A program made the translations under genes and the position numbers. From an uncultured Gammaproteobacteria bacterium (lineage in GTDB: Bacteria > Patescibacteriota > Microgenomatia > Levybacterales > UBA12049): 64,000 nt of DNA. Under the pieces are notes generated by a model. The model was not told the origin of the DNA. It did no database searches and was given only the letters and a program-made list of their open reading frames with translations. The stretch spans positions 18,873-82,872 of the forward strand of contig CAYRJZ010000001.1 in the NCBI GenBank assembly GCA_964424775.1, in the 5' to 3' direction. Of the stretch, positions 1 through 62,723 are shown piece after piece. Every line of letters begins with the position of its first letter. Position 1 is the first letter of the stretch.

Positions 1-1174
1 TACTCAGGTCAGCAAACTTCTGAAGTTGGTTACTTAAATCTGGATCGGTACGAACTAACCCTTCAAACCCTGATTTAGCTGCATTTGCATTCGTAAGCTC
101 TGTAACTGCACGAGTAACCTCACCTGCATCTGCTCCTGCTATAGGCGTATAGACACCTGCCCTATTTACTGTCGCATTTGCTTTAAGAAACGCACGTAAT
201 TCAGGAATTTCTTGATGGACTAATTGTTGATAAGCCACAATATCTGCAAACCTGTCTCCAATATTTGCTTCAATAATTACATTGTTCCTAATATCTCGGA
301 GAATCATATCTGGCCTATCGCCTAGATTTACCCGACGTAAAATATCATTTTTTTGATCAGGAGTTAGGGTATGACCAATCTCTTCAAACTTACTTGAGAT
401 ATGATCAAGTACTTCTTGTTGCTCAGTCGTAATTCTTGTTTTTTCTGAATTCAGTCTCTGTAATTCAGGATCTATTTCAACATGACTAAGATCACGAGAA
501 CGGGTACTAATATCCTTCATACGTTTATTTATCTTGGCAAGAAGCTTGGGGTCTGAGGCAAGAGTTCGTTCGAGGAGAAGTGCAACTTGGTCAGCAGGAA
601 GACTCCTGAGTTCAGGAAAAAGAATTCCTACAGATGGATCTTTCATTAATTCAGCAAGACCATTTGCTCGAATGGTATCCCAGTCACGCTTTGATGGAGG
701 AAACCCTTTTTCTTTTAATACATCTGCTTCATTTAGCGTTGGATTTGCTATCTTCATCTGAAGGACATCTAAATAATTAATTACCTTTGAAACATTTCCA
801 ATTGCTCTCTCAGCTTCCTCATGGTTGGTCTTAACTAACGATCTTTCATAATCACCAAGCCCATCAGTATCAACTGTTACTCCCCCTCTTCCCTTTTGAG
901 CCCGCTCTCCACCAAAATGCATGAGGAGTGACTCTTGATCATTGAGCCCAAAATTAGGTGCATGATATGCGTCAAGTCGCTCCATGACAGCATGTCCAGA
1001 CCCCGTTTCTTTCTTTACCTGTGTTAACTCTTGTGCAACGGTAAATGAGTCTTCTAATGCTCGTTCAACACTTCTTGAAGAGAGCCTTCTCACTGCGTCA
1101 ACATCTGGTGTAAGGAGAAGTGCATCTGTTGCTTTAAAAACTCGTGGTTCTTCTGGTGTTGGCAGTGATGACAT
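1..1174 (-). CDS. hypothetical protein, 5'-complete and 3'-partial; continues beyond the window start
   Basis: Manual translation of the minus strand gives an uninterrupted ORF from the ATG at 1172-1174 (MSSLPTPEEPRVFKATDALL...) to position 1. It is not in the ORF track because it runs off the window. The two plus-strand track ORFs inside it (534-761, 984-1349) look like antisense artefacts. No family recognised. Confidence 0.5.
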   Translation of the reverse strand, partial: MSSLPTPEEPRVFKATDALLLTPDVDAVRRLSSRSVERALEDSFTVAQELTQVKKETGSGHAVMERLDAYHAPNFGLNDQESLLMHFGGERAQKGRGGVTVDTDGLGDYERSLVKTNHEEAERAIGNVSKVINYLDVLQMKIANPTLNEADVLKEKGFPPSKRDWDTIRANGLAELMKDPSVGILFPELRSLPADQVALLLERTLASDPKLLAKINKRMKDISTRSRDLSHVEIDPELQRLNSEKTRITTEQQEVLDHISSKFEEIGHTLTPDQKNDILRRVNLGDRPDMILRDIRNNVIIEANIGDRFADIVAYQQLVHQEIPELRAFLKANATVNRAGVYTPIAGADAGEVTRAVTELTNANAAKSGFEGLVRTDPDLSNQLQKFADLS

Positions 1175-1179
1175 AATTA

Positions 1180-1485
1180 TTACTGGCTATTTTCCATCTG
1201 AGCCAGTTCAGACTCTATTTTTCCAATTAAATCCTTCTTTTTTAAATCCAGAAAAACATTTATATAGATATCCCATCGAAGGGATAGTTCACGAAGAGCT
1301 TGAGTCAGCTCTCCAAGCGTTTGTGCTTTCTCTACTCGAGATAAAATAAAATGAGCGGAAGCAGCAGCTTCATCTGTCAAAATCTGCTCTCTTTCTAATC
1401 CGGCAATGACCGCATCTGCAAGATCATCATAAACTTTCTTTTTCATTTCCACAGAAAGAGGTTGACGTGAAACATCCATATACAT
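1180..1485 (-). CDS. hypothetical small alpha-helical protein (101 aa)
   Basis: ORF-track entry. Its stop lies 5 nt from the start of the downstream minus-strand ORF, an operon-like arrangement. Divergent from the T4SS-like module. No family recognised. Confidence 0.4.
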   Translation of the reverse strand: MYMDVSRQPLSVEMKKKVYDDLADAVIAGLEREQILTDEAAASAHFILSRVEKAQTLGELTQALRELSLRWDIYINVFLDLKKKDLIGKIESELAQMENSQ

Positions 1486-1593: not shown

Positions 1594-2922
1594 TTGAGTT
1601 ACTTGCATACAAATTTTTCACGTTATACACTTTTAGCAATAGATATACTCCCTGCCCGCCTCAGAATTCTTTTTGTGGCTACCAGGGCTACATTTGTTAT
1701 GGAAAACCATCCTATACCACAAGACGTAACCGGGTTTCAGTTTAAGCTCATCGGGAGTATGACTATTAAACAATTTGCGTATGTGGCAGCGGGGTCAGTT
1801 GTAGCTGTATTAACATACTATATTCCATTCCCTTTCCTCTTCAAGCTTATTGTTATTCCAATTTCTGGTGGATTAGGTGTCGCACTTGCCTTTCTTCCAA
1901 TCGAAGGACGGCCTCTTGACGTTATGCTGGGGAATTTCTTGAAAGATCTCTTCAATCCTACACAGTATATCTACCAGAAAACAGGAGGGACACTTCTCCT
2001 TTCGACTATTGATCTTGCGCATATACAGAGACAAACAACACAACTAGCAGCTAAATCTCATACTGATGAAAAAATAGTAAAAGCCCGAGCCGAACAACTC
2101 TCAAAATTACTTAGAACAGTGAGTACATCAACAAAAACCCAACTAGATGAAAAAGAAGAAGTATTTCTTAAGGCACTTTTTAATCCGCAGGCTCAAGGGC
2201 CAATGATGGTTACACAAAATGGACAGCCATCAATTCAGGAACACAGACTTTCAGAAGCTGAACTACTTCGTGCAAAAGTCGGACCTAACTTAGAACAGCA
2301 GGAAGATGCTCTTGAGAAGGAAGCTGAGGCCATAAAAAAAGAGCTTGAATTAGCAAAAGTCGAGGAACATACTCTTGAGGTTAATCATCAAGAGACAACA
2401 GAGGTACATACTGAAGTGGTAACGCTTGAGCAGCAATTGCAAGATATTATGCAGCAAAAACAACAGCTTGAGCAGGATCTTCTCAAGTTAAAAGAACAGA
2501 TGGAGCAACCTCAGAAAAAAGTTCAGCCACAACAGCCAGCTCAACCTATTGCTCCAGCAATAAATGTGCACAGCATTCCAACGGATCAGGCAAAACAGGT
2601 TGGCCTTCCCGCTGTCTCTGATCATCCAAATGTTGTAGCTGGAATTGTTCGTGATTCACGTGGAAATGTTCTTCCTAATATCCTTGTTGAAATAAAAGAT
2701 ACAAATGGCAATCCTGTTCGAGCCTTTAAAACAAATGGACTCGGTCAATTCGCATCCGCAACAGCACTCGCTAACGGGACCTACACAATTGAATTTGAAG
2801 ACACCAGAGGAAAACATCGCTTTGAAGTTGTGCAAATTGAAGCAAAAGGAGAAGTTATGCTTCCTCTTGAAGTAATCTCAATTGATGATAGAGAATTATT
2901 AAGAAGAGAGTTATTTAGTTAA
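1594..2922 (+). CDS. PrgI/VirB3-like membrane protein with Q-rich coiled coil and C-terminal carboxypeptidase-regulatory-like beta-sandwich domain
   Basis: The N-terminal segment FQFKLIGSMTIKQFAYVAAG plus two hydrophobic helices resembles PrgI/TcpE-type small T4SS membrane proteins encoded upstream of VirB4. The middle is E/Q/K-rich coiled coil (QQKQQLEQDLLKLKEQMEQ). The C-terminus (VVAGIVRDSRGNVLPNILVEIKDTNGNPVRAFKTNGLGQF...GTYTIEF) matches the CarboxypepD_reg/Cna-B-like fold pattern. An alternative start at 1699 (MENHPIP...) is possible. Confidence 0.55.
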   Translation: MSYLHTNFSRYTLLAIDILPARLRILFVATRATFVMENHPIPQDVTGFQFKLIGSMTIKQFAYVAAGSVVAVLTYYIPFPFLFKLIVIPISGGLGVALAFLPIEGRPLDVMLGNFLKDLFNPTQYIYQKTGGTLLLSTIDLAHIQRQTTQLAAKSHTDEKIVKARAEQLSKLLRTVSTSTKTQLDEKEEVFLKALFNPQAQGPMMVTQNGQPSIQEHRLSEAELLRAKVGPNLEQQEDALEKEAEAIKKELELAKVEEHTLEVNHQETTEVHTEVVTLEQQLQDIMQQKQQLEQDLLKLKEQMEQPQKKVQPQQPAQPIAPAINVHSIPTDQAKQVGLPAVSDHPNVVAGIVRDSRGNVLPNILVEIKDTNGNPVRAFKTNGLGQFASATALANGTYTIEFEDTRGKHRFEVVQIEAKGEVMLPLEVISIDDRELLRRELFS

Positions 2923-2923
2923 T

Positions 2924-3583
2924 ATGAAATCACCTGCCCAAAAAATACATGCAACAACGCAAAAGTTTACTGAAATCATAGACATAGTTGACAATGTCGT
3001 CATTCTCGCTGGAGGAAATGCAGCACTTGTTATTGAGATCACAGCGAGTAACTTTGCTCTTCTCTCAAAAAAAGAACAAGACTCAAAGATATTTGCCTAC
3101 GCCTCACTTCTCAACTCACTTACCTTCCCTATTGAAATTCTCATACGTAATAAAAGAATTGATATTACATCATACTTAAAAGAATTAGATGAAGAAGAAC
3201 TGACTACAAAAAATGAACTACTTGCACAGCACATCCGTCTTTACCGAGAATTTGTTCGTGAGATGGTACGAGTAAATGTCGTTCTCAATAAGACTTTCTA
3301 TATTGTTATTCCTTTCTCTTCCCTTGAAGCAGGTCTAAGTGGCGTTAAACAATCATTTGGCAAAAATGAGGCAGAAAAGCAGGCATTTGCAGAGGCAGCC
3401 AAAAAAGCTCTTAATGGAAAAGCTGAGTCTGTTCATGCACAACTTGCCAAACTATCAGTTGCATCAAAAACACTTGAAAAAGAAGAGCTTATTAAACTCT
3501 TCTATGATATTTTTAATGACTCCACCATACAAGGGACACAAGCACAAAGTGATATCGGAAGTCCGATTATTAAAGGAGCGTAA
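2924..3583 (+). CDS. VirB4-family N-terminal-like protein (possible N-terminal fragment of a split VirB4)
   Basis: The motif IIDIVDNVVILAGGNAALVIEITASNFALLSKKEQDSKIFAYASLLNS resembles the extreme N-terminus of Gram-positive-type VirB4 ATPases (PrgJ/TcpF/Orf16-like). It ends with TAA 2 nt before the ATG of the VirB4 ATPase ORF, which is in a different frame. Confidence 0.5.
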   Translation: MKSPAQKIHATTQKFTEIIDIVDNVVILAGGNAALVIEITASNFALLSKKEQDSKIFAYASLLNSLTFPIEILIRNKRIDITSYLKELDEEELTTKNELLAQHIRLYREFVREMVRVNVVLNKTFYIVIPFSSLEAGLSGVKQSFGKNEAEKQAFAEAAKKALNGKAESVHAQLAKLSVASKTLEKEELIKLFYDIFNDSTIQGTQAQSDIGSPIIKGA

Positions 3584-3585
3584 AG

Positions 3586-5505
3586 ATGAAATTACCATTT
3601 GGAAAAACAAAACCATCAACTCAACAGACTACACCCCAACCAGGACAACCTAGTCCAGCCATTCAACATTTGGAAAAAGGAATGGTAAGTCTTGTTGATG
3701 TTATTGCCCCCTCCTCTGTTGAGGTAGACTTCAAGTATATTCGTGTTGGCGAAAAATTTTATTCCACTCTCTTTATTGTGGGCTACCCACGCTACGTTTC
3801 ACCTAATTGGCTGCAACCAATTATTGATTATGACCACACTTTGGATATCGCAATGTATTGTTATCCAACTTCATCCTCAGATGTTCTTGACGATATTAAA
3901 AGAAAGATTGCAGAAATGGAGGCAACATTACAAAGTGATGCAGAGAATGGACATCCACCAGATCCACGAGTTGAGGCAGCGCTCGAAGATGCCCTTGCTC
4001 TTCAAGAAGAACTTGCAAAAGGAGTTGAACGTTTTTTCCAGTTCAGCTTTTATATTACACTTTCTGCTGATAGCTTAAACGAACTTGAAGATGCAAGTAA
4101 ACAACTAAAAACGACACTTGCTTCGCTTCTTTTGTCTGCAAAGACGGCAACCCTTCAGATGGAAGAAGGGTTTAAATCAACTATTCCCTTCGCACAAGAT
4201 AGGCTTTTCATTACACGAAATATGGACACAACATCCCTTGCTTCAACTTTCCCTTTTACATCAGCAGTTCTCACTCAAAATAAAGGAGTTATGTACGGCA
4301 TAAATCAACAAAATGGCTCACTTATCATCTTTGACCGATTCTCACTTGAAAATGCAAACGAAGTTGTTCTCGGTAAGTCTGGAGCAGGAAAATCATATCT
4401 TATAAAGCTGGAAATTATGAGACAGTTCATGTTGGGAACAGAAGTCATTGTTGTAGATCCTGAAGGGGAATATGAGGCACTCGCACGAACCTTGGGTGGT
4501 GAAGCGGTATCATTCACCTCATCCTCCCCTATTAAAATTAATCCTTTTGATCTTTCACAACTTTATGAACCAGGAGAAAACGAGTTGGGTTTGAAGATTC
4601 TCTCTCTTCATGGGCTTCTTAAGCTTATCATGGGGCAGCTTGATGCAGAACATGATGCGATTTTAGATAAAGCTCTTGTTGAAACATATAGACAAAAAGG
4701 AATTACACCAGATCCTGAAACACAGAAAAAAGCACCTCCTCTTCTTGAAGATCTCTATAAAACATTACTGGGTATGGAGACACAACCTGCAAAAGAGATG
4801 GCATATCGACTTGAAAAATTTATCCAAGGAAGTGCCGCCGGCATTTTCAATCAACCGTCTAACTTCGATATCACCAATCCTCTCACCATTTTCTCGATTA
4901 AAAACCTTGAAGAAGAGTTACGACCAATAGCAATGCATATAATTCTTGATTTTGTCTGGACGAAAGTGAAAAAGTCACTTAAGAAAAGACTTCTTATTTT
5001 GGATGAAGCGTGGTATATGATGAAGTATGAAGACTCAGCCTCATTTGTGTATTCAATTGCAAAAAGAGCACGAAAATATTACTTAGGTTTAACTACAGCA
5101 ACTCAAGACGTTGAGGACTTTCTCAAAACTGACTATGGGAAGGCAGTCCTCACAAATTCATCTATCCAGATACTATTAAAACAAGGAACTGCTGAGGTAG
5201 ATATGGTGGGAGAGGTATTCTATCTATCAGAGGGAGAAAGAGAGCTACTATTATCCGCTGACATAGGAGAAGGCCTTTTCTTTGCTGGACAGAACCACGT
5301 AGCCATGAAGGTACTCGGAGCGCAATTTGAACATGAAATAATTACTTCAAATCCTCAAGAAGTTTTGGCAGCACAACAAACACAAAATGGTCAGGCATAT
5401 CAACCGTCTACACCTACACCTACACCTACAGCTGAACCAACGGTTACGCCTCAAGAGATAGCCAACCAACCGCTACCTCAACCTCCCCTATCACAAATTC
5501 CGTAG
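3586..5505 (+). CDS. virB4: type IV secretion/conjugation ATPase, VirB4/TrbE/CagE family
   Basis: Carries the VirB4 N-domain signature (EVDFKYIRVGEKFYSTLFIVGYPRYVSPNWLQPII), Walker A (VVLGKSGAGKSYLIKLE) and Walker B with the family-typical DEAW box (RLLILDEAWYMM). The C-terminus has a Pro/Thr-rich tail (TPTPTPTAEPTVTPQE). Confidence 0.85.
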   Translation: MKLPFGKTKPSTQQTTPQPGQPSPAIQHLEKGMVSLVDVIAPSSVEVDFKYIRVGEKFYSTLFIVGYPRYVSPNWLQPIIDYDHTLDIAMYCYPTSSSDVLDDIKRKIAEMEATLQSDAENGHPPDPRVEAALEDALALQEELAKGVERFFQFSFYITLSADSLNELEDASKQLKTTLASLLLSAKTATLQMEEGFKSTIPFAQDRLFITRNMDTTSLASTFPFTSAVLTQNKGVMYGINQQNGSLIIFDRFSLENANEVVLGKSGAGKSYLIKLEIMRQFMLGTEVIVVDPEGEYEALARTLGGEAVSFTSSSPIKINPFDLSQLYEPGENELGLKILSLHGLLKLIMGQLDAEHDAILDKALVETYRQKGITPDPETQKKAPPLLEDLYKTLLGMETQPAKEMAYRLEKFIQGSAAGIFNQPSNFDITNPLTIFSIKNLEEELRPIAMHIILDFVWTKVKKSLKKRLLILDEAWYMMKYEDSASFVYSIAKRARKYYLGLTTATQDVEDFLKTDYGKAVLTNSSIQILLKQGTAEVDMVGEVFYLSEGERELLLSADIGEGLFFAGQNHVAMKVLGAQFEHEIITSNPQEVLAAQQTQNGQAYQPSTPTPTPTAEPTVTPQEIANQPLPQPPLSQIP

Positions 5506-5535
5506 TAAGAAAAATCATGCTACGATTAAAGATAT

Positions 5536-6750
5536 ATGGATGACGAGCAGTATCGAGATGATCAAGATCAACAAGAAAATTCGGAAGATAATTCATCTTC
5601 ACAAAGACCAAGTATTAACCAATTAAGACGGTCTCTTCAAAATAGACAAGTTGGCAGATCTTCACCTTTTAGATTACCCGGACTCTCAAAGATTGGTGGG
5701 AAGTCAGGATCTGGTGGCATAGGGACAACGATCAAAACAGGTGCACAAGCAGCTCGTGTAGTAGCTTTCTTTGGAACAGGTCCTGGAATTGTAGTGCTGA
5801 TTTTGCTTCTCATTTTAGTAATTATTATTCTCTTTTTTCTTGTCTTTGACCTCTCAAGTAAAGGTGTCTCAGTAACGTTGACGAAGACTGGTCCGGAGGA
5901 AGTTGAAAATGGAGAGTCTATTACTTATGATCTCAAAGTAAACTATACCGGTTCACCTCGAGAAATTGTTGTGACTGACAAAATCCCCCTCGATACTGAA
6001 TTTGTTGCTGCATCAGGCGCTGGTAATCCGACATACGACCCAACCACAAGAACAGTAACATGGAGAATCCCAATCTCCAGGAGTGGCACAAGGACAGGAA
6101 GCGCATCAGGTGATATCGTCGCGCTCCTCCCATCTACCATTCCCACGGATCCCTCAGGAGTGGATACGATAAAGGAAACCATCCTTTCTCATTTCCGTAA
6201 CTACCCTGATCTAATAACACAGTATAAAGATGCTTCCTCTACAACAGGTATCCCTTGGCAGGTTTTTGCTGGAATGCACTGGCGTGAAGGTGATGCTCTC
6301 CCAAATTACTCACTAACAAGTGGACGACCTATTGGCGATTTTGAACCAGACAGAAATGCAGCAGGAGATTGTACTGGACCAATAGGGGCTGTCGATGGAA
6401 AGGCTGATATAAATTGTACTTATGCAAACGCAGTTGATGATATTATGTTTGCTGCAGATCATCTCATCGGAAAAATCGGCAAGGTGCCTTCCTCTTATGA
6501 AGAAATCGTTCAGGCATTTTCACGATATAATGGTACTGGTAATGAAAATTGCGGAAGATCACCTTATCCCCACTGTCCACCAGTATTTGAATCAGAAGAT
6601 AGTGCCTACACCCTTAATTTCTTTGATGAAAAGCATGGTACTATGTATGCAATATACTGTAGCGATGGGACTCAGTGTGCATATGGAACGAGAGATCAAA
6701 GACCAGGCGCGCTTACCGTTACCAAATGGGTTGCAGAAGGATTAAATTAA
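5536..6750 (+). CDS. membrane-anchored surface protein with adhesin-type (DUF11/Cna-B-like) repeat and possible lysozyme-like/transglycosylase-like C-terminal domain
   Basis: Acidic disordered N-terminus, then a single strong TM (GIVVLILLLILVIIILFFLVF). The following repeat-like beta domain (SVTLTKTGPEEVENGESITYDLKVNYTGS...TVTWRIPISRSG) resembles the conserved repeat domain of surface adhesins. The Cys-containing C-terminus carries AFSRYNGTGNE, reminiscent of the AYNAG motif of SLT domains; this call is weak. Confidence 0.5.
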   Translation: MDDEQYRDDQDQQENSEDNSSSQRPSINQLRRSLQNRQVGRSSPFRLPGLSKIGGKSGSGGIGTTIKTGAQAARVVAFFGTGPGIVVLILLLILVIIILFFLVFDLSSKGVSVTLTKTGPEEVENGESITYDLKVNYTGSPREIVVTDKIPLDTEFVAASGAGNPTYDPTTRTVTWRIPISRSGTRTGSASGDIVALLPSTIPTDPSGVDTIKETILSHFRNYPDLITQYKDASSTTGIPWQVFAGMHWREGDALPNYSLTSGRPIGDFEPDRNAAGDCTGPIGAVDGKADINCTYANAVDDIMFAADHLIGKIGKVPSSYEEIVQAFSRYNGTGNENCGRSPYPHCPPVFESEDSAYTLNFFDEKHGTMYAIYCSDGTQCAYGTRDQRPGALTVTKWVAEGLN

Positions 6751-6754
6751 GACT

Positions 6755-7345
6755 ATGAACAGAAAAACGCTCTTATTTTTTAGTGTCATCTTCATCATTA
6801 TCGTTCTCCTCTTTCTTTCTCTCATTGTCTTTAGCTTAAGATCACCTCAAAACGGAACAGACAATCAACGTATGCCAAACAACTCACCTGTTCCTACACA
6901 AATTAGTATTGCTCCAAATAGAGTTACTCCTACACAGCCACAAGCAAAGCCAGTACTTATATCTGAACTTCCGAGGGAAGGATTTGCTATACGGACGAAT
7001 GCTCCTGAAGTTATAAATTCAGAACGCGAAATCGCGAAAATACGATCAAGTCTACCATTTATCAGAGATCTCAGTGGTGTGAACAAAAGAAAAATTTCTA
7101 TCGTTATTCCAGGAGCAGAATATCAGGACGATCCTTGGAAATTGACTGTACAAATTTTTGGACCTGATTATCAAATTGCTTCCTCCTCCTCAAATTATCT
7201 GTTAGAGAAAGCATTATTTATCCAAGGAGCAAACTCTGCGTTCTCTTGGATAAGAGAGAATGGAGCAGATTCTAACAAAATCATTATCAAATGGGGAGAT
7301 CAAGCATTCATCCAGCAAAGAGCTGAACAATGGATATCAGAGTAA
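6755..7345 (+). CDS. hypothetical membrane-anchored/secreted protein (N-terminal TM)
   Basis: ORF with an N-terminal hydrophobic anchor (LLFFSVIFIIIVLLFLSLIVF) and a Pro/Thr-rich linker. Sits within the T4SS-like module. Confidence 0.45.
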   Translation: MNRKTLLFFSVIFIIIVLLFLSLIVFSLRSPQNGTDNQRMPNNSPVPTQISIAPNRVTPTQPQAKPVLISELPREGFAIRTNAPEVINSEREIAKIRSSLPFIRDLSGVNKRKISIVIPGAEYQDDPWKLTVQIFGPDYQIASSSSNYLLEKALFIQGANSAFSWIRENGADSNKIIIKWGDQAFIQQRAEQWISE

Positions 7346-7361
7346 CACTTCTTCTCGATCT

Positions 7362-8957
7362 ATGTATAAAGTGAGAATTAATAAAAAATTATTCCTTCTT
7401 CTTACGTCGGTTATTGTCGGATTAGGAATATTCTTTCTATCGACAAAGTTTGGCGAAAACATTTTACCTTCCAAGACAACTGTTTCAGGTATAAAAAAAG
7501 GCGTGCTCCAATCTCAGACTGCTTATGCAGCAGTCGATGTAACAAAATACACTCAATCTCCCTACAACCTTCCTACTCCTGGAGAACCAGAAGAATTAAG
7601 CAGCGAAGCAATAACAATTGCAAACTCCGTCGGTTCGCATGTTGCATCTTTCCAAACTTATCTAACTAGCAAGCACGACGCTCAACTCGTTGATCCATTT
7701 TTATCAGCAATCTGGGCAGCAGCAATTGAAGGAATTACTTCTCCTTATTTCTGGAACTGCAATGATAATGATTCAATAACGGTAAATGATGGATGTGCTG
7801 GCAATTTTTCATCCGGAAATTGGCAAGTAGGATTTGGGATTCAAGTTTCTCAAGCAGCCAATCACATAGTTGAAGATTTTAATGCAGCATATGGGGATGG
7901 AAAAGCAGACGATGCAACTTTTGTAGGTGGAATAGGACAAGCAGTACTTGATTCCGGTAGTATATCTAATCCATCAACATTCCCAAATAAAAAACTTTCA
8001 GAAATATCTGCTGCAGCAATAAATGGAGATTCAGCATCACAACAAGCACTTGCTGTTTTACTCATGGATCAAAAATTAGGTGCAATTGCTGTTGCTCGGG
8101 AAATTGCATCAGACATTGCTGGCAATGGGTCGTGGCGGGGAGCAATGGAAGGATGGGATAGTCCTCCCGACTCCACATATTACACAGATAACATGCAAAA
8201 GTTTTCAAACAGAATGGCTTATCTTGCACAACACTACACTGGCGTCAGCGGTACAGTACCGGGTGGAGGTGTTGGTGGTGGATCATTTACTCTCAGTCTT
8301 GTTCTCAAACCGACAAAAGATGATGTCTATGTCACCAATATTGCAACCGCTTATGCTATCGGCGGCACTGGTGGAACAGGTAGCTCTTCTGCAACGACAA
8401 ATGGGCCAGTCAACCCTGATGCGACCTGTCCTGGAGAAGGACCAATTACTTGCGGAACTCGTGCAGGCAGTGCGCAAGCCTCTGCTTGTCACTGTACTGC
8501 CTCTTATGAAGAAAATGTCACAGGGTGTAATGGATACTGTTCATGGTGTCACCCACCTGATGATGGGGCTGTCTACGCTATTGATATTGCAAATCCCTTA
8601 GACGCACCTGTCTTTATTCCAAAGATATCTGTTGGAGGTGAAGTTCGTACTGTTACCTGTATAGGCTATGGAAACCAAACAGGAAGTACGGAGCCAAATC
8701 AGATCATTCAAATACTCAGTTGCTCTGATGATAAGACGGATGAGGCAGTCTGGATGCAATTTCATCATAGTAAAAAAAGTAATCCAGTTACCGAAGGGAA
8801 AACATATAAATCAGGAGAAACAGTCGGATACTCTGCTGAAATGGAGGTATTTGCTTCAGATCCTCACGTCCATTACCAAATAGGTGTAAGTGGGCCATGC
8901 GGCGCAGGTGGGACAGCAAGTTGCAGGAATGCAGACGAGTTCGTACAATGTAATTAA
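7362..8957 (+). CDS. secreted/membrane-anchored Cys- and Gly-rich protein with C-terminal M23 (LytM-like) peptidase-like domain
   Basis: The likely start is the ATG at 7362 (MYKVRINKKLFLLLTSVIVGLGIFF), because the track start at 7260 overlaps the upstream gene. N-terminal TM anchor, a Gly-rich segment (GGGVGGGSF...GGTGGTGSSS) and many Cys. The C-terminus has HxxxD (CHPPDD) and ...DPHVHYQIGV, resembling the HxH motif of M23 peptidases. Confidence 0.55.
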   Translation: MYKVRINKKLFLLLTSVIVGLGIFFLSTKFGENILPSKTTVSGIKKGVLQSQTAYAAVDVTKYTQSPYNLPTPGEPEELSSEAITIANSVGSHVASFQTYLTSKHDAQLVDPFLSAIWAAAIEGITSPYFWNCNDNDSITVNDGCAGNFSSGNWQVGFGIQVSQAANHIVEDFNAAYGDGKADDATFVGGIGQAVLDSGSISNPSTFPNKKLSEISAAAINGDSASQQALAVLLMDQKLGAIAVAREIASDIAGNGSWRGAMEGWDSPPDSTYYTDNMQKFSNRMAYLAQHYTGVSGTVPGGGVGGGSFTLSLVLKPTKDDVYVTNIATAYAIGGTGGTGSSSATTNGPVNPDATCPGEGPITCGTRAGSAQASACHCTASYEENVTGCNGYCSWCHPPDDGAVYAIDIANPLDAPVFIPKISVGGEVRTVTCIGYGNQTGSTEPNQIIQILSCSDDKTDEAVWMQFHHSKKSNPVTEGKTYKSGETVGYSAEMEVFASDPHVHYQIGVSGPCGAGGTASCRNADEFVQCN

Positions 8958-9430
8958 TGACTCTCAGGCTTCATAAGTTCTTATTAGCTGGAATATTTTT
9001 ATTTGCTTTACTAGTTATTATCTTACTTGTATTTATTAATTTCTCACCATCTTCTCAATCTCCTTCAACCTCACCTGCTCCCACTTCTTTACCGATTGAT
9101 GAGCGTGGAACATCACACATAAAAGCAACAAGTATTAATCCCCCAGAAGACACTTCAGGCACCACTATTCTTAATCCATCTCAAAAAATTGAATATACAC
9201 TAAATCAAGACTCAGTATCACCAAGTGAAGTTACTGTACGAGTTTCACCAACTATTCCTGTAAAAATAAGACAAAATACTGATGGGAAAATTGAAGTGTT
9301 TCCTGATCCTCCCTACTTCTGGAAGCCTGATGTTCTTTATAAAATCACACTGCTTGATAAGGACAACCAGGTAATTACGACCTACTCTATTAAAGTACCG
9401 CGTATAAAACTTCCAGAAGTTGTTGATTAA
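8957..9430 (+). CDS. hypothetical membrane-anchored Ser/Pro/Thr-rich protein
   Basis: N-terminal TM (LLAGIFLFALLVIILLVFINF) followed by a low-complexity S/P/T region. The start overlaps the stop of the upstream gene by 1 nt. Confidence 0.45.
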   Translation: MTLRLHKFLLAGIFLFALLVIILLVFINFSPSSQSPSTSPAPTSLPIDERGTSHIKATSINPPEDTSGTTILNPSQKIEYTLNQDSVSPSEVTVRVSPTIPVKIRQNTDGKIEVFPDPPYFWKPDVLYKITLLDKDNQVITTYSIKVPRIKLPEVVD

Positions 9431-10184
9431 TATGAAAAAATTGCTTGTTTCATCTTTATTTCTTTTATTATTTGGATCTTTCTTGACATCAATGGTAGAA
9501 GCTGCAACCACTTCAACCAGCTGTTTCACAACGAAAGTTGGTGATCCAACTGGTGACAAACCAGAACTTCCAGCAGAGTGCAATAGCGGAACAAGTGGCG
9601 GTGGTGCAGTTGGGCCATGTCAGGCAGCTCCTCCTGCAAATTTTACCAGCGAGGGAGAGTATAGAAAAGCTATTTCTGATAAATGGAGAATAAGTCTTTT
9701 TCTTCCTCTTCATCAAATGCAAAATGCATGGAAGGAATTTCATGAAATCGACTGTACTGGAATTCTCCAAGACATAAGTGGCTCTGTTGTGGGAAGCTGG
9801 GAAAATGGCTGGTCTGAGCAATTTTCATGCCCAGGCGATGATGGGGTCAATCTCTATATATCCAGTCAGTTTTCAGGGGAATGGGTCGAGACACATTTAG
9901 TGCATGAGTTAACTCACATTTGGCAAAATTGTAGCTCCAGAGGGGAATCGAACAGATTAGAAAATAACACTGCATATGATGCAGAAGGAGGAATCACTAA
10001 TTACTCACGAACAAAGTGTGGTTTTGATGTTGATGTGTATAAAGAAGATCATGCCGAATCAATTTCCCTCTACCTTAACCCTCAAAGCGGAGAGTCTACT
10101 TGTGCTACAACTAATGTAAATCCTTTTACGAATGGTGGATTCCCAGAGCATGCAAAAGCTGCAAGAAATGGAACAGGAAAATGA
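9420..10184 (+). CDS. secreted putative zinc metalloprotease (HExxH)
   Basis: Classical signal peptide (MKKLLVSSLFLLLFGSFLTSMVEAA), the zincin motif HLVHELTHIW and multiple Cys in the mature part (about 10). Confidence 0.5.
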   Translation: MLINMKKLLVSSLFLLLFGSFLTSMVEAATTSTSCFTTKVGDPTGDKPELPAECNSGTSGGGAVGPCQAAPPANFTSEGEYRKAISDKWRISLFLPLHQMQNAWKEFHEIDCTGILQDISGSVVGSWENGWSEQFSCPGDDGVNLYISSQFSGEWVETHLVHELTHIWQNCSSRGESNRLENNTAYDAEGGITNYSRTKCGFDVDVYKEDHAESISLYLNPQSGESTCATTNVNPFTNGGFPEHAKAARNGTGK

Positions 10185-10825
10185 AAAATAATAAATCTCT
10201 ATTATTTTTAGTTATACTTCTTGGAGTTGGAGTTATACTACTTCTTATTTTAATTATTTCATCATTTTTCAGTTCTCCCCAGAATACAAATGACAATGCA
10301 AATAGGCTTCCAACACCAGTTCGCAATACGACAAATCCAGATGATACTAAGTCTTTTGAATTTACCCCTCTTCAACGAACAATCATTGGTCAAACAAAGG
10401 ATGAGAATATTAAAAAATTAGAAAAAGTCATTTCAGAAAAAGAGCAAGATGGAATAAAGACATATATCACACAATCGTACATAAAACAGTACACGAATGA
10501 GATTCGAACAAAAAATGGCGTGGTTATTTTTGAAACTACACGAACTGAGATTTCATCTCCCCCTCCTCCTAAGTTAAATACTTTTCAAGATTTGTATGGT
10601 CAACCCGAACTTGTATTGGATAGTGTTTCTGAGTTAGGAAAACATGTTTCAGCGTATATTTATGCTAGTAAAGGCTTTACATTATTTGCTAATAGGTACA
10701 CCAAAACAGTGTATGATGTTCATAGATATCTTCCTATGAGCCTTAGTGAGTATCAAAAAGAATATTCTCGCTACCTTCAACCTGCCCCTCCCTATCCTCA
10801 GGAAAGACCAGACGCTGCGAATTAA
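10181..10825 (+). CDS. hypothetical membrane-anchored protein
   Basis: N-terminal TM (LLFLVILLGVGVILLLILIISSFF) and a 4-nt overlap with the upstream gene. Last gene of the plus-strand module, convergent with dnaN. Confidence 0.45.
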   Translation: MKNNKSLLFLVILLGVGVILLLILIISSFFSSPQNTNDNANRLPTPVRNTTNPDDTKSFEFTPLQRTIIGQTKDENIKKLEKVISEKEQDGIKTYITQSYIKQYTNEIRTKNGVVIFETTRTEISSPPPPKLNTFQDLYGQPELVLDSVSELGKHVSAYIYASKGFTLFANRYTKTVYDVHRYLPMSLSEYQKEYSRYLQPAPPYPQERPDAAN

Positions 10826-11931
10826 TTCTGTAACCTGATAGGCATTATGAGATGAAGAAATGATTCATTATCTTTTATCTTAAATACTCCTGGATTAAGA
10901 GGACCAGTCATCTCAAATGTCAGAATGTCTGAGGGTATATTTGATAAGACATCTAATAGATAACGAGCGTTAAAGGCGATCTCATTTTCCTCTCCCTCTA
11001 AATTAGCCTCAACATCAACAGTGTTATCACCAAGGGACGGATTTTTTGAGAGAACAACGATCTTATCACTCTTTAAGGAAAGTGTAATGATATTTGCAGC
11101 GTCTCTTGCAAAGATGGAACAAATCTTTACAGCTTTTAACAACTCTTCCCTGTCAAAAGCCGTTCGTGAGGCATGGTCAGATGGAATTATCTTTTCAAAA
11201 GGAGGAAATTCTGCTCCAATGAGACGACCAATAAGAAGTGTCTCTCCTAACTCAAATATAACTTGATTGCTTCCTTTTGAAACATGAATAGAGACAGTCT
11301 CTGCTTCATCTTTCATCGAAAGGACCTCGCGCATTACTCGTGCTGGAACGATGAGTGATTCTTCTGTTCCTGTTCTACCGTTCTGAAGGGAGAGATGTTT
11401 TAAAGAAAGTCTGTATCCATCAGTTGCAACTAAAAGAAACCCACTTGCTTCACTTCTTAAAAGTGTTACCGAGAGAGCAGGACGAGTAGTATCATTACTT
11501 GCTGAGAAAACGACCATGCCCGCATCTTTTTTCAGATCTGCAAACTGTACTGTTGCGAGAAGTTCTCCCTTTTCTTCATATAATTTAGGGAAATCTTCTT
11601 TTGCTAGTGTTTGAAATGAGCTTTTCGTTTTTTTACTCTCTACTATTAATGATCCATCAGTTGTTGTTAAGGTTACTGTCTCATGAGGAAGTGAGGAAAT
11701 AAGCTCGGTAAATGTCTTTGCAGGTATTGTGGTCCCACCTTCTTCATGAATCTCTGCTTGAACTGATGTATGAATTCCTATCTCAAGGTCAGTACTACTG
11801 AGTGTAACACTGCCATTCTTTGCTTCAATGAGAATATTAAGAAGTACTGGAAGATCGTTGCGACTTGAGATAGCGTGATTTAAGAATGTTAATTTTTTCT
11901 GGAGATTTTCGCTGGTAACGCTTATCTTCAT
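10822..11931 (-). CDS. dnaN: DNA polymerase III beta subunit (sliding clamp)
   Basis: Typical DnaN N-terminus (MKISVTSENLQKKLTFLNHAISSRNDLPVLLNILIEA), 369 aa with three-domain length, immediately downstream of dnaA. Confidence 0.9.
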   Translation of the reverse strand: MKISVTSENLQKKLTFLNHAISSRNDLPVLLNILIEAKNGSVTLSSTDLEIGIHTSVQAEIHEEGGTTIPAKTFTELISSLPHETVTLTTTDGSLIVESKKTKSSFQTLAKEDFPKLYEEKGELLATVQFADLKKDAGMVVFSASNDTTRPALSVTLLRSEASGFLLVATDGYRLSLKHLSLQNGRTGTEESLIVPARVMREVLSMKDEAETVSIHVSKGSNQVIFELGETLLIGRLIGAEFPPFEKIIPSDHASRTAFDREELLKAVKICSIFARDAANIITLSLKSDKIVVLSKNPSLGDNTVDVEANLEGEENEIAFNARYLLDVLSNIPSDILTFEMTGPLNPGVFKIKDNESFLHLIMPIRLQN

Positions 11932-12200
11932 ATATATCTATTAGATGTTGTAGTAGTGTATATGGAAATGTATAAATCTACCCCATAATACAATACTGTT
12001 TTAAGAAACGTCTCAAAAAACCAGGCTAATATGAAAAAACGGTACATCTATAAAAATATATAATAATTAATGAAAGCACGAGATATAGCCTGGGGATAAA
12101 TGTGGATAAGATGTTGATAAAAATGGGGATGAGTTAGGGATAACTCGACCATAAAAGTTATCCCTAAGTTTTACCCACGGATACGATTTGTTATCCCCTG
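11932..12200. promoter_or_regulatory. candidate oriC segment: AT-rich dnaA-dnaN spacer with clustered DnaA boxes
   Basis: TGTGGATAA at 12101-12109, TGGGGATAA at 12091-12099, GGGATAAC/GTTATCCC variants at about 12137-12165 and 12190-12197, and a highly AT-rich stretch at 11932-12080 that could serve as a DNA unwinding element. Confidence 0.5.
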
Positions 12201-13568
12201 GATATCCTCACTCACCTTAGCTTTATTCTCCACAAGTGATTCAATTTTATCCACACCATGCATAATCGTTGTATGGTCACGTCCTCCCAAGAGTCCACCT
12301 ATTTCTACATAAGTTAATCCCAACTCCTCTTTGAGAAGATACATAGCGACCTGGCGAGCTTTGACAAGATTGGCATCTCTCTTTGGTCCACGAAGTTGGG
12401 TTGGTTTTATTCCATAAAAGTCACAGACACCCTTAAGTACGTCCTCAGCATGGATATGCTCACGTTTCTCTTCCTGCATCAGTCCCAAGGCTCGTTGTGC
12501 CACTTCAATCGTTATATCTGATCCCATACTTGTTGCCTGTGTTATAACTCGAAGCAGGAGCCCTTCAAGGCTTCGTGCATCCTGAACGCGCTCAGCAATC
12601 ATTTTTGCAACATCAATTGGGAGTTGATGGCCATACTTCTCTGCTTTTTTGAGAAGGATAGCTGTCTTGAGTTCAAAGTCAGGAGTCTCGATATCAACTG
12701 TTAGTCCCCCAGCAAAGCGTGAAGAGAGTCTTTTCTCAAGTTTTTTTATCTCATGTGGTGGGCGGTCAGAGGAAAGGCAAATCTGCGCCCCATTATCAAT
12801 GAGAATATTAAAAGTATGGAATAACTCTTCTTGTACTCGATCCTTCCCTTCAATAAATTGAATATCATCAATAAGGAGAAGAACAGCTGAGCGGAACTTT
12901 CTCTTCATTTGAGAGGTGTTATTATTTCTAATTGCTTCAACGACTTCATTGGTGAATTCCTCACTTGTAATATAAATAATTTTTTTATCAGGTTGTTTGA
13001 GGTAGACTGAATTTGCAATAGCATGCATGAGATGAGTCTTCCCCACTCCAACCGGTCCGTAAATAAAGAGCGGGTTGTATGATGTCCCAATATGATCAGC
13101 AACTGTTGCTGAAGCAGTAAAAGCAAGCTGATTGCTACTGGAGACGGCGAAATTACTGAAGGTATAATCGGCACGTACACGCGGAAGGTGTCCAACAGCT
13201 ATTGTTTTTTGAGATGTAGTATGAGAAGTCATGTGAAGAGGCTGTGTTTCATTCTTTCCAGTAGGAGTGTTCGTAAATAAAGGACCTTCTTTCTCATCGC
13301 TAGAGGGAATGTGGGTAAATGTCTTCGTTGTAAAAAAAAGAGTAACGTCTTCTTTTGTGTGTTTTTCAAGTGATGCCTTAATATCCGCTTGGAAGCGTTT
13401 TTGTAAAAGATCGACAATCATTGTTGAAGGTGCGGCTATTGTTGCAATTTTATCTTCCCACGAAAGAAGCTCAGTGTGTTTGAAGAAAGTAACAAAACTT
13501 GCCTTTGACACCTTTTTTTCAAGATCTGATAATACATTTGTCCATAGTGTGGATAACTCAGATTCCAT
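12171..13568 (-). CDS. dnaA: chromosomal replication initiator DnaA
   Basis: AAA+ Walker A (GPVGVGKTHLMHAIAN) and the C-terminal DnaA-box-binding domain (DHTTIMHGVDKIE). The probable start is at 13568 (MESELSTLWTNVLSDL, a DnaA-like N-terminus); the track ORF extends to 13685 through DnaA-box DNA. Confidence 0.9.
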   Translation of the reverse strand: MESELSTLWTNVLSDLEKKVSKASFVTFFKHTELLSWEDKIATIAAPSTMIVDLLQKRFQADIKASLEKHTKEDVTLFFTTKTFTHIPSSDEKEGPLFTNTPTGKNETQPLHMTSHTTSQKTIAVGHLPRVRADYTFSNFAVSSSNQLAFTASATVADHIGTSYNPLFIYGPVGVGKTHLMHAIANSVYLKQPDKKIIYITSEEFTNEVVEAIRNNNTSQMKRKFRSAVLLLIDDIQFIEGKDRVQEELFHTFNILIDNGAQICLSSDRPPHEIKKLEKRLSSRFAGGLTVDIETPDFELKTAILLKKAEKYGHQLPIDVAKMIAERVQDARSLEGLLLRVITQATSMGSDITIEVAQRALGLMQEEKREHIHAEDVLKGVCDFYGIKPTQLRGPKRDANLVKARQVAMYLLKEELGLTYVEIGGLLGGRDHTTIMHGVDKIESLVENKAKVSEDIQGITNRIRG

Positions 13569-13717
13569 AAACGATTCCTTTTGCTGGATTTCCCAAAAAT
13601 TAGGGCAAGAAGCGGGATCTCTACAGGGCGTGTAGTAGTCAGTGTAGTAATGTGGATAACTGATGTCAAGAACGAAAATAGACATACTTTTCCTTTGAGG
13701 CCAAATATGATATACTT
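13540..13717. promoter_or_regulatory. dnaA upstream region with DnaA boxes and the rpmH/dnaA divergent promoter region
   Basis: TGTGGATAA at 13548-13556 and 13651-13659, within the AT-rich divergent region between dnaA and rpmH. Confidence 0.4.
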
Positions 13718-35142: not shown

Positions 35143-36903
35143 TTAGAGACAGTGTTGTTGGTAACGAATAAGGTATGTATTGAGATGTGGGACAGTTGAA
35201 CTTCTTTGCGCGAGCTGCTGGAGGGCAAGACAATCCTGAGGATCTAGGTTGAGGAGTTTTTGCAGAAGCGGCTCTTGATACTCAAGCATTTGAGTAAACT
35301 GATAAAAATTTAGAGCTCGTACAAGAGCGTTTCGTGAATTATCATGAAGGTTAGACATAGTGAATGATCCTTTTGTTTTTTGATATTCTGCAATAACATG
35401 AGCGTTTTTAGGAGTATTCTTCACTAAAATGATCATGTAAGGATCAAGATACACCGTTTTCCAGTTTTCATTCTCAATGATATCTTTGATAAATTGCTGA
35501 GCCCAGGGAGTCATATCATTATGAGAAAAAAGTATTGTGTTAAATCCATATTTTCTTTCAATTCTTTGAAAGACTGATGGGTCTTGTTGCATAGGGATGT
35601 ATACCTCTTTAAAAAAATGAGCAGGATACGCTTCAGGTCTGCCATCAATAAAGACTTTCTCTTGAGGATACAGTCTAAAGATAAGATAGCTTCCTATATC
35701 AAAATTATTAAAGATAGGACCTTTTAGTTTTTCACGTTGAAAGAAATCTATTCCCATTGACGCTCCAGTCTCAGGGCTCGGAGAAAGCTGTCGAAGTGAG
35801 GAAACTTCTCTTATTTGCAATATATAAACGAAACAAAGCAATACAGCGGTCATCAAAAAGAGAAGAAGTGTTCTTTTAGGGTATGCTTCATCAACTCTTG
35901 TTTGTATTTCGGAAATAATAATTGTTAGAGTTCGGATAAAAGGAAGAAAGACAGCAAGGGAAAAGAGTGGAAAGTTCCTTACTGCAAGAAGCGCGATAAC
36001 TGAAAATGAAATACAGAGCAGCCAATCGATAATTCGAGTTTTTTTAACTGCGAGAAGAAGAGACGTGAAGAGAAGACCAAGACTTATTTGGAGGTAAAGC
36101 CACGATGTTTTTTGAAATCCAAGTTGAGAGAGGAGAAATGGGGTTTGGTTCTCCTCAATTGAATAACCATAGTTATGAAAGACAGTAAATGGATAAATTG
36201 CTCCATGAATTCCGTTTGGGTTAATAAGCGTAATTACGCTACTTATTCCAAGAATAAGAGTGAGCGTTAATACATTTTTATCATGAATAGTTCTCTTTCT
36301 CATAAGTTCGTCTAGCCAAAAAATTCCTATGACTCCCAATCCGATGAAGAAGTAGATATGTGAGTTGACCCACAGTAATTCAATGAAAGGCAAGAGAAAA
36401 ATAAGGCGAGTATATTTTTCTCTAAACTTAAAAAGGATGACTAAAAAGAGTGAAAGAAAGAGATAGCTGAATAGTTCAGGGCGAATGTCAGTCCTTTCAA
36501 AAAGAACTCGAAGGAGGAGAAGTGAGACAATTGAGGTCGCGATAAGAGAGTATTTTTTTAAAGCTGAAAAGTAGAGGAGCCCAAATGAAGTGAATATGAG
36601 AAAGAAAGTTAAGATCATGAGACCTTGAAAACTAAATTGGTGATAGAGAAGCGAAAATATTATCTCAGGGAGATAATGGTGATTGATGAAGGGAAAGTCT
36701 GGGTAGGTGTAGGAGAAGAGATTGGTTTTGGGGATGGAGCCGTTTAGACGGATAATATCACCAAGGAAAATATGCCTTCCCAGATCTTGTGTGATTGCAC
36801 TAATACTATGAAAGTATCCAACGGATAAAAGAGTAAAAGTGAGAATTATGAAGAGAAAAGCAAAAAGTTGATGAAGAGGAGTGGATCTATTTGCGTTTTT
36901 CAT
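35143..36903 (-). CDS. large polytopic membrane protein, possibly GT-C-type glycosyltransferase or similar
   Basis: More than 12 predicted TM helices and a soluble C-terminal domain. No confident family. Confidence 0.4.
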   Translation of the reverse strand: MKNANRSTPLHQLFAFLFIILTFTLLSVGYFHSISAITQDLGRHIFLGDIIRLNGSIPKTNLFSYTYPDFPFINHHYLPEIIFSLLYHQFSFQGLMILTFFLIFTSFGLLYFSALKKYSLIATSIVSLLLLRVLFERTDIRPELFSYLFLSLFLVILFKFREKYTRLIFLLPFIELLWVNSHIYFFIGLGVIGIFWLDELMRKRTIHDKNVLTLTLILGISSVITLINPNGIHGAIYPFTVFHNYGYSIEENQTPFLLSQLGFQKTSWLYLQISLGLLFTSLLLAVKKTRIIDWLLCISFSVIALLAVRNFPLFSLAVFLPFIRTLTIIISEIQTRVDEAYPKRTLLLFLMTAVLLCFVYILQIREVSSLRQLSPSPETGASMGIDFFQREKLKGPIFNNFDIGSYLIFRLYPQEKVFIDGRPEAYPAHFFKEVYIPMQQDPSVFQRIERKYGFNTILFSHNDMTPWAQQFIKDIIENENWKTVYLDPYMIILVKNTPKNAHVIAEYQKTKGSFTMSNLHDNSRNALVRALNFYQFTQMLEYQEPLLQKLLNLDPQDCLALQQLAQRSSTVPHLNTYLIRYQQHCL

Positions 36904-62290: not shown

Positions 62291-62713
62291 ATGGCTGAAC
62301 TCAAGACACTGCCGACACAGCAGAGCGCAACATCCTTTTTGGATACAATAGAACCTGAATCAAAAAGAAAAGATGGATACGTACTTCTCGATTTATTTAA
62401 GAAAGTCACTGGCGAGGAGCCTGTGATGTGGGGAGAGAGTATTGTTGGTTTTGGGAAGTATCACTATAAATCAGAGCGAAGCCGCCAGGAAGGAGACTGG
62501 CCACTTGTTGCCTACTCCCCGCGAAAACAGAATTTATCTTTGTACATTATGGCTGGAAATAAGGATAATCCTCTTCTGAAAAAATTAGGCAAGCATAAGG
62601 CAAGTGTTGGATGTCTTTATCTTAATTCACTCGCAGATGTCGACGTAGATGTCCTTTCAGAACTTATAAAAGAGTCATTTAGATATACGAAAGAAATGTA
62701 TAAAGTTAAATAA
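62291..62713 (+). CDS. DUF1801/YdhG-like small protein
   Basis: Block PVMWGESIVGFGKYHYKSE is typical of the DUF1801 family. Confidence 0.5.
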   Translation: MAELKTLPTQQSATSFLDTIEPESKRKDGYVLLDLFKKVTGEEPVMWGESIVGFGKYHYKSERSRQEGDWPLVAYSPRKQNLSLYIMAGNKDNPLLKKLGKHKASVGCLYLNSLADVDVDVLSELIKESFRYTKEMYKVK

Positions 62714-62723
62714 AAGTGAGTAT

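Follow-up and report, generated by a model that had tools for sequence, protein, structure and literature searches.

Type IV secretion systems (T4SSs) of Patescibacteria were described in a survey of 3,035 genomes (Quinonero-Coronel et al. 2025, Microb Genom, PMC12102498). Their VirB4 ATPases formed a monophyletic clade nested in the MPF_FATA class, and TrsD and PrgI/VirB3 adjoined virB4. Relaxases were found in only 103 of the genomes. Homologues of the type IV coupling protein (T4CP) were present in most genomes, mostly far from virB4. VirB6 was scarce in Microgenomatia, and VirB8 was almost undetected. The same survey reported VirB2-like pilin arrays, a position close to dnaA/dnaN in Microgenomatia and Paceibacteria, and few VirB1 homologues near virB4 outside Paceibacteria. 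In S. epibionticum, transposon sequencing (Tn-seq) showed that the T4SS homologue (SEML1_0006-0019) was essential for epibiotic growth, and the Saccharibacteria T4SS had no recognisable relaxase or coupling protein (Wang et al. 2023, Cell, PMC10633639). Genes 0006-0019 are also origin-proximal, judged from locus-tag numbers. According to the survey's account of the Tn-seq, peptidase and lysozyme genes downstream of S. epibionticum virB4 were essential too (PMC12102498). In the first Microgenomatia strain to be cultivated, the host envelope was penetrated by tubular structures that may be T4SS pili, and host RNA uptake was reported (preprint 10.64898/2026.06.21.733656). Here, we analysed a T4SS locus beside dnaN in a 64-kb stretch of contig CAYRJZ010000001.1 (the window, meaning all of the DNA analysed).

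The source organism is a Levybacteria-like member of the class Microgenomatia (Patescibacteria, also called CPR). The region was most probably (about 0.85) the right-hand two thirds of a vertically inherited chromosomal T4SS typical of Patescibacteria, in the Microgenomatia arrangement. Its part in the window corresponded to the core and the cell-wall-cutting portion of the non-conjugative T4SS that nearly all of these ultra-small bacteria keep near the origin. The system derives from the conjugation machinery of monoderms (MPF_FATA) and no longer has the DNA-processing parts. The existence of the system, its monoderm ancestry, its lack of a relaxase and its origin-proximal position are already published, and this locus is a further instance of it.

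Core genes and chromosomal setting

Nine co-directional open reading frames (ORFs) were located on the plus strand between 1594/1699 and 10825, spaced by 1-30 nt or overlapping, as the initial annotation of this DNA had described. The operon appears to be translationally coupled, judged from its overlapping or near-abutting starts and stops. The stop of the last ORF overlapped that of the convergent dnaN (10822-11931, minus strand) by 4 nt, with dnaA beyond. The features were as follows (TM, transmembrane segment; aa, amino acids).

1699..2922, plus: g1, PrgI/VirB3-like protein (PF12666, PF13620)
2924..3583, plus: g2, TrsD-like, VirB4 N-terminal domain (NF045975, TrsD)
3586..5505, plus: g3, VirB4 ATPase (NF045971, PF19044, Walker A, DEAW)
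5536..6750, plus: g4, TM, DUF11 stalk and predicted lysozyme-like / lytic-transglycosylase-like head (fold prediction for the head)
6755..7345, plus: g5, N-terminally anchored exoprotein of 196 aa (family in 15 loci)
7362..8957, plus: g6, TM, predicted lytic-transglycosylase/lysozyme-like domain and LytM/M23-fold domain (fold prediction)
8957..9430, plus: g7, N-terminally anchored, Big_5 (bacterial Ig-like) family (PF13205 in family members)
9432..10184, plus: g8, Cys-rich putative zinc metallopeptidase with a Sec signal (HELTH motif)
10181..10825, plus: g9, N-terminally anchored exoprotein of 214 aa and last gene of the operon (family in 12 loci)
10822..13685, minus: dnaN and dnaA with DnaA-box clusters at 12091-12255 and 13548-13659 (Pfam on orthologues)

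The VirB4 call survived profile searches. g3 scored 388 bits against NCBIfam NF045971, the CD1110 family of VirB4-like conjugal ATPases (cut-off 325), and matched PF19044 with an E value of 2.5e-27. It contained a Walker A motif (GKSGAGKS at residue 263) and LLILDEAW at 469 (DEAW at 473), followed by a Pro/Thr/Gln-rich C-terminal tail. Thousands of homologues were found. The best 120 were 72-100% identical, and the named members among them were Patescibacteria or Levybacteria. The nearest VirB4 among 72,556 plasmids was 37.5% identical and was a CD1110-family protein of a Firmicute, this family being the monoderm VirB4 family of Firmicutes and Actinobacteria. On identity and profile scores, g3 thus fits strongly with the Patescibacteria clade of VirB4, which is nested in the monoderm MPF_FATA class.

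g2 aligned to positions 99-278 of the VirB4_plasma model NF045975 (E 6e-8), and g3 aligned to positions 293-893. Since the two proteins cover successive parts of the full-length model, VirB4 appears to be encoded in two pieces, with g2 as its detached, cytoplasmic N-terminal domain. g2 also had a weak TrsD match (E 2e-3), and PF26593 (TraC-like) was recorded for its 98% identical orthologue. It had been claimed that every protein except VirB4 carried an N-terminal anchor or signal. This held for g1 and g4-g9 but not for g2.

The assignment of a PrgI/VirB3-like protein was upheld, as g1 exceeded the gathering score of PF12666 (31.8 bits against 27). Two TM helices were predicted at residues ~26-66, and the C-terminal part matched PF13620 CarboxypepD_reg with 32.8 bits (gathering 32.3). 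The start is most likely ATG 1699 rather than TTG 1594, because the orthologue in the close relative L081 was called at 407 aa. Residues ~100-407 formed an extension of ~300 aa, comprising a long coiled coil, a Pro/Gln-rich linker and a CarboxypepD_reg-like beta-sandwich. The extension was retained in the L081 orthologue, and the PrgI of a second relative, L082, was of similar size (403 aa). Canonical VirB3 proteins have no such extension. By analogy with the hairpin that VirB3 proteins usually form, the extension would lie in the cytoplasm.

Past the module, the gene order was dnaN, dnaA, rnpA, yidC and the KhpB/Jag gene. Of the perfect TTATCCACA DnaA boxes in the window, 4/5 were in the two clusters at ~12.1 and ~13.6 kb, and the cumulative GC-skew minimum was at ~17-19 kb. 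Together with the conserved dnaN-dnaA neighbourhood, this meant that the locus abuts oriC on the lagging strand and is bounded by the replication-origin region, in agreement with the earlier remark that the module lies against the origin genes. The T4SS operon with dnaN (1699-11931) was head-on to the fork from the adjacent origin, and the dnaN-convergent layout was conserved in 58/62 loci. A head-on lagging-strand orientation is odd for a locus proposed to gain from origin-proximal dosage.

The remainder of the 64 kb was ordinary housekeeping (glycolysis, LeuRS, RuvABC, purine salvage, primase, sigma factors), and an Rfam scan of the window gave tRNA-Asn only. Three close DUF1801-family genes were located at 62291-63809, in the lowest-GC part of the window (~0.35). 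Just upstream of them, at 60281-61377, an ECF-type sigma factor and a putative membrane anti-sigma partner were encoded.

Probable vertical inheritance and the absence of DNA-processing genes from the window

One genome per GTDB species was scanned, which gave 80 loci. By record title these were Levy-, Curtiss-, Gottesman-, Woyke-, Woese- and Roizmanbacteria and WWE3. Sufficient upstream sequence was available for 69 loci, and all of these had the order PrgI-TrsD-VirB4. Convergent dnaN-dnaA(-rnpA-yidC-jag) followed downstream in 58 of the 62 informative loci, so the dnaN-adjacent position is conserved in related genomes, as had been anticipated. In L069 and L078, the dnaA/dnaN block was rearranged yet still adjacent. 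L081, whose VirB4 was 97.6% identical, was used as the reference for the ratio of nonsynonymous to synonymous substitution (dN/dS). The core gave 0.017-0.028, and dnaN, dnaA and yidC gave 0.018-0.034. Purifying selection on the core is therefore as strong as that on these housekeeping genes. Conserved synteny and this level of constraint ruled out a recent mobile insertion.

Many GTDB representative records were titled 'uncultured Gammaproteobacteria', 'Nevskiaceae' or 'Pseudomonadales' (L004, L005, L008, L009, L013, L017, L018 and ~30 others; L064; L072). They carried a Levybacteria-type locus with a VirB4 57-86% identical and the same dnaN-dnaA synteny, and the titles appear to be mislabelled.

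An integrative and conjugative element (ICE), or a decaying remnant of one, might have inserted beside dnaN with its relaxase, coupling protein and integrase outside the window. VirB4, TrsD and PrgI are homologous to monoderm conjugation proteins, and the left window edge cuts the locus, so that part of it is unseen. However, the same order and chromosomal position recurred in the 58 of 62 loci across Levy-, Curtiss-, Gottesman-, Woyke- and Roizmanbacteria, and the core was constrained like dnaN and dnaA. A search for direct repeats on either side of the module found none, and no GC anomaly or compositional shift was seen at it. In relatives, the 10 kb upstream contained pilin genes and not a relaxase or integrase, and relaxases are rare in Patescibacteria as a whole (103/3,035 genomes, PMC12102498). 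Neither an integrase nor att sites nor a patchy distribution was observed. The ICE explanation was rejected on synteny, selection, composition and the lack of repeats, and we consider it very improbable.

The absence of relaxase, integrase and VirB6 from the 64 kb was also confirmed. Relaxase, T4CP, integrase and VirB6/TrbL gave no Pfam match in the 49 window ORFs scanned, and the relaxase and oriT that mark a conjugative MPF_FATA system or ICE were not found in the window. No relaxase was present among the called neighbour genes of L081 and L082. The statement that a coupling protein is lacking stood for T4CP (VirD4/TcpA) within these 64 kb, which are all that the absence covers. It did not extend to the genome, as distant T4CP homologues occur in most Patescibacteria in the published survey. 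The view of a chromosomally fixed, non-conjugative envelope apparatus of a reduced-genome episymbiont was thus in line with synteny, dN/dS, the lack of relaxase, integrase and repeats, and the literature.

The polytopic proteins of the window were YidC, a Wzy_C protein, a P-type ATPase, a 586-aa protein with ~10 predicted TM and a few small ORFs (<=211 aa) beyond 56 kb, two of which were outside the Pfam scan. As VirB6 candidates by topology, they were rejected because none was near the cluster. The 586-aa protein (35143-36903, minus strand) had no Pfam match and was distant from the T4SS cluster. Its neighbours were a class-A beta-lactamase-like/penicillin-binding protein gene and a P-type ATPase gene. 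Among relatives, 53 cassette proteins gave no VirB6/TrbL match. Polytopic first-cassette proteins occurred only in more distant Microgenomatia, and these had no TrbL/VirB6 match either.

The module had been called compact and minimal. This was an artefact of the window edge, since the locus is cut there and relatives have a pilin array in the corresponding place. Iterative hidden Markov model (HMM) searches, which also gave the numbers of loci per family, found 166 VirB2-like pilin ORFs, spread over 45 of the 82 loci. These ORFs formed arrays of 3-7 genes immediately before PrgI (for example L001 2512-5390; L082 138-3231; L030 4892-8012). Five T4SS_pilin genes preceded the cluster in L082 (complete, 1.08 Mb). 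At the head of an array there was usually a protein of 280-650 aa that combined a signal/TM segment and a Cys-rich ectodomain with a pilin domain at the C-terminus. This protein may be a tip pilin or one that bears an adhesin. The window itself contained no VirB2-like pilin gene; in relatives such genes were seen just left of the corresponding edge.

In L081, the order was a pilin gene (PF18895), a 722-aa gene and a 102-aa gene (both minus strand), the same nine genes and dnaN. Counterparts of the two divergent genes occupied the left end of the window.

1..1174, minus: truncated coiled-coil, C-terminally tail-anchored protein, first 391 aa of ~722 aa (ORF start 1174)
1180..1485, minus: soluble protein of 101 aa, co-transcribed with the ~722-aa gene and divergent from the T4SS operon

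The first corresponded to the first 391 codons of the L081-type 722-aa gene, whose orthologue in L081 had one C-terminal TM and no Pfam match, and the second was the counterpart of the 102-aa gene. The 101-aa protein was 98% identical to the L081 copy (dN/dS 0.04). The two-gene unit (window 1-1485; L081 525-3004) had no Pfam matches. It appears to be an insertion, specific to this lineage, that separates PrgI from the pilin array, because the ~722-aa family was found in only 3 and the 101-aa family in only 7 of the 82 loci.

The virB4-dnaN cassette and its predicted wall hydrolases

From virB4 to dnaN extends a cassette that evolves fast and whose domains are shuffled. Its length among relatives ranged from 20 bp to 8.3 kb (median 2.6 kb), and nearly every ORF in it was membrane-anchored. 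Compared with L081, the cassette genes had dN/dS values of 0.05-0.24 and evolved 2-12 times faster than the core. g6 was only 67% identical to its L081 copy, against 97.6% for VirB4. The domains recurred in differing combinations: 15 loci had the DUF11 anchor module, 7 the g6 N-domain, 6 the g8 domain and 3 the g4 head. In other loci, the largest cassette proteins had recognisable M23, CHAP, M15_4, SLT, Amidase_2 or YkuD domains, and a beta-lactamase-like protein was also found there. Absence or variability of the cluster among close relatives had been named beforehand as evidence against a fixed apparatus. The core was constant (69/69), and the cassette varied.

TM and signal prediction gave every product of g4-g9 an N-terminal signal or TM anchor. 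Pfam and NCBIfam searches with these proteins and their closest homologues found nothing besides the DUF11 repeat, and PDB sequence and profile searches with the g4, g8 and g5/g7/g9 families gave no significant match. The six cassette domain families were mutually unrelated by hhalign, so g5, g7 and g9 are not paralogues.

g4 was composed of an acidic cytoplasmic tail, a TM at ~71-108, a DUF11 Ig-like stalk at 114-176 and a Cys-rich head at 185-404. The predicted fold of the head was lysozyme-like / lytic-transglycosylase-like. Pfam has no model for this head family, and sequence searches linked it to no solved structure. The head (window 6091-6750) had 756 representative relatives at 50% clustering, 295 of them with E below 1e-10. 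One homologue was fused to a T4SS_pilin domain.

g6 was modelled from a 16-sequence alignment with a mean predicted local distance difference test score (pLDDT) of 72. The model suggested an N-terminal TM, a lytic-transglycosylase/lysozyme-like domain at ~60-290 and a LytM/M23-fold domain at ~350-531, and its fold matches included the PrgK LytM domain. By this prediction, g6 is a PrgK-like wall hydrolase in the VirB1 role. The claim of an M23-like peptidase therefore stood for the fold and not for the active site. The canonical His of HxxxD was replaced by Val (VYAID), and it was kept in only 1 of 10 homologues. The family retained the HxxxD Asp and the FHH and HVH motifs, so that the full M23 zinc-ligand set (HxxxD plus HxH) was not present in the C-domain. 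HPPDD was also considered as the HxxxD motif of an intact active site, and was rejected because the HMMER alignment to 5kqb places VYAID there. The LytM domain is probably degenerate. That of PrgK was shown experimentally to be non-catalytic (PMC11323569).

g8 contained HELTH at 158-162, and HELxH was invariant among 8 aligned homologues, as were Glu 185, Glu 205 and His 240. The proposed HExxH protease was thus supported at the level of the motif, and g8 is a putative zinc metallopeptidase. It had no Pfam or PDB relative. In relatives, its domain was fused to M23-like, SLT-like or LT-like domains.

The TM-bearing N-terminus of g5 was conserved in L081; its family was found in 15 loci, and no significant PDB match was obtained. 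The g7 family occurred in 16 loci, and 13 of the 16 members matched PF13205 Big_5 (best E 3.8e-10), with the window copy itself below the threshold. The g9 family was found in 12 loci, a word-indexed homologue search gave 6 proteins, and no Pfam or PDB match was seen. Its dN/dS against L081 was 0.10. The size and topology of g5, g7 and g9 suit a VirB8-like (PrgL/TraM) bitopic protein, but none had a VirB8 sequence match.

The Cys-rich secreted proteins had been suggested as cargo or as wall-remodelling accessory factors. T4SS cargo is unlikely, because each has an N-terminal signal or TM anchor as a Sec substrate and two are wall hydrolases by predicted fold. Accessory wall remodelling was the better option. 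It is still conceivable that only g1-g3 belong to the T4SS, and that g4-g9 are general autolysins and surface proteins sharing the operon or a T4SS-independent arsenal against the host wall. The variable length of the cassette, its shuffled domains, its faster evolution, its Sec-type N-termini and the assorted peptidoglycan enzymes in relatives, including YkuD and the beta-lactamase-like protein, are consistent with this. However, g4-g9 appear translationally coupled to virB4 and to each other by overlaps or tiny gaps. In addition, the essential genes of S. epibionticum include those for peptidase and lysozyme that immediately follow virB4 (PMC12102498), and one g4-head homologue carries a T4SS pilin domain. 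We regard an independent function of g4-g9 as rather unlikely.

A further and tentative idea, doubtful at present, is that the interval is a hypervariable slot in which an anchor and an Ig-like stalk present interchangeable heads (lysozyme-like, LytM, CHAP, amidase, HExxH), aimed at the host envelope and not at the cell's own wall. If this were true, rapid turnover would track and help set the host range, and the T4SS/pilus would use the breach. The lysozyme-like head of g4 would then define a large peptidoglycan-hydrolase family unrecognised by Pfam.

Proposed role and comparison with known systems

The homologies and predicted folds suggested how the apparatus might work. By homology, a PrgI/VirB3 hairpin is in the membrane, and the VirB4 ATPase is made of a TrsD-like N-domain and the ATPase body. 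PrgI would dock VirB4 at the membrane, by analogy with the VirB3-VirB4 pairs of other T4SSs. This motor might energise assembly of a channel, a VirB2-like pilus or both. The six downstream products are exported by Sec, judged from their N-termini, and mostly remain tethered to the membrane. Local wall remodelling may be carried out by the lysozyme-like heads of g4 and g6 and the LytM-fold domain, with g8 as a candidate HExxH peptidase by its motif. g5, g7 and g9 could be Ig-like and other spacer or scaffold proteins, an assignment that is family-based for g7. Given the essential Saccharibacteria homologue and the tubular structures of the cultivated Microgenomatia strain, we infer that the apparatus acts at the host-bacterium contact site. 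There it would transfer macromolecules, either importing nucleic acid from the host or exporting effectors, and would not conjugate.

A dedicated DNA-uptake (competence) machine, like Helicobacter ComB or archaeal Ced, would use host or environmental DNA as a nucleotide source. This agreed with the lack of nucleotide synthesis in Patescibacteria and with the 2025 survey, which favours import of DNA or other macromolecules and reports comF/recG/radA beside the T4SS in the class ABY1 (PMC12102498). VirB4 also matched the CedB model weakly, but its 62.7 bits were far under the cut-off of 700, and no com or ced partner genes were found in the window. Competence of S. epibionticum needs ComEC and type IV pili, and deletion of comEC leaves viability while the T4SS is essential. 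Moreover, the cultivated Microgenomatia strain points to RNA, not DNA, as the acquired material (preprint 10.64898/2026.06.21.733656). A dedicated DNA-uptake machine was thus judged unlikely.

Several points weighed against the reading of the region as a vertically inherited Patescibacteria T4SS. Neither a VirB6-like polytopic channel subunit, in the cluster or close to it, nor a recognisable VirB8-like protein was found, which leaves the crossing of the membrane by the substrate unexplained. The pilin array of the source locus was deduced from L081, L001 and L082 and would be outside the window, and the lack of a T4CP in the window is silent on the rest of the source genome. One canonical zinc ligand is missing from the LytM domain of g6, and this domain may be inactive. 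In L072, L069, L048 and L075, the gap between virB4 and dnaN was only 20-505 bp and the cassette was nearly or wholly absent, so its proteins are not indispensable at that position.

Few machines have been shown to be essential for epibiotic life in this very large, mostly uncultured radiation, and the Patescibacteria T4SS is one of them. To this known system, the present analysis added wall hydrolases in the VirB1 role that were predicted at the fold level and invisible to HMMs in a Levybacteria-type locus, and the PrgK-like pairing of SLT and LytM domains, the latter probably degenerate. It also added the cassette nature of the virB4-dnaN interval against a housekeeping-like core, and the location of the relatives' pilin array just outside the window. 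These features point to concrete candidates for biochemistry on host and self peptidoglycan.

Among repurposed systems, Bordetella Ptl, Brucella VirB, Helicobacter ComB and archaeal Ced resemble the locus in being relaxase-free, in some cases coupling-protein-free, and derived from conjugation. However, the first three belong to diderms and have a VirB7/9/10 core complex, and Ced works with partner proteins of its own. The VirB4 of the window was far below the CedB cut-off. There was no membership at the sequence level. Genes of the Ced and ComB sets (CedA/A1/A2, ComB2-10) were not found in the window.

Among Gram-positive conjugative systems, the PrgI-like VirB3 is shared with pCF10 (PrgH/I/J/K/L) and with pGO1/pSK41/pIP501 (TrsC/D/E, TraG), and in the pGO1/pSK41 subclass VirB4 is split into TrsD and TrsE as in the window. 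A dedicated wall hydrolase of the VirB1/PrgK/TraG type was matched by the predicted SLT-like and LytM folds of g6 and the lysozyme-like head of g4. PrgK of pCF10 is likewise membrane-anchored with SLT-like and LytM domains, and its LytM is degenerate too (PMC11323569). In contrast to PrgK, which has the order LytM-SLT-CHAP, g6 has SLT-LytM and no CHAP. The window also differed from pCF10/pGO1-type systems in having no relaxase, T4CP (PcfC/VirD4), PrgH/VirB6, recognisable PrgL/VirB8 or adhesin. Its locus is chromosomal and vertically inherited with housekeeping-level constraint, and loci of its type go with VirB2-like pilins, which the Gram-positive systems do not have.

The closest match was the Patescibacteria-clade T4SS, from which the locus showed no difference of substance. 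Both have a VirB4 nearest to monoderm MPF_FATA with TrsD-like and PrgI/VirB3 genes beside it. Both lack a relaxase, a T4CP beside virB4 and, in Microgenomatia, a detectable VirB6, and both are chromosomal beside dnaA/dnaN. S. epibionticum likewise has peptidase and lysozyme genes immediately after virB4, and the VirB2-like pilin arrays of the clade were seen upstream in relatives. Compared with the survey, the Levybacteria slot holds predicted divergent lysozyme-like and LytM-fold proteins that HMMs missed, and this slot is variable and modular.

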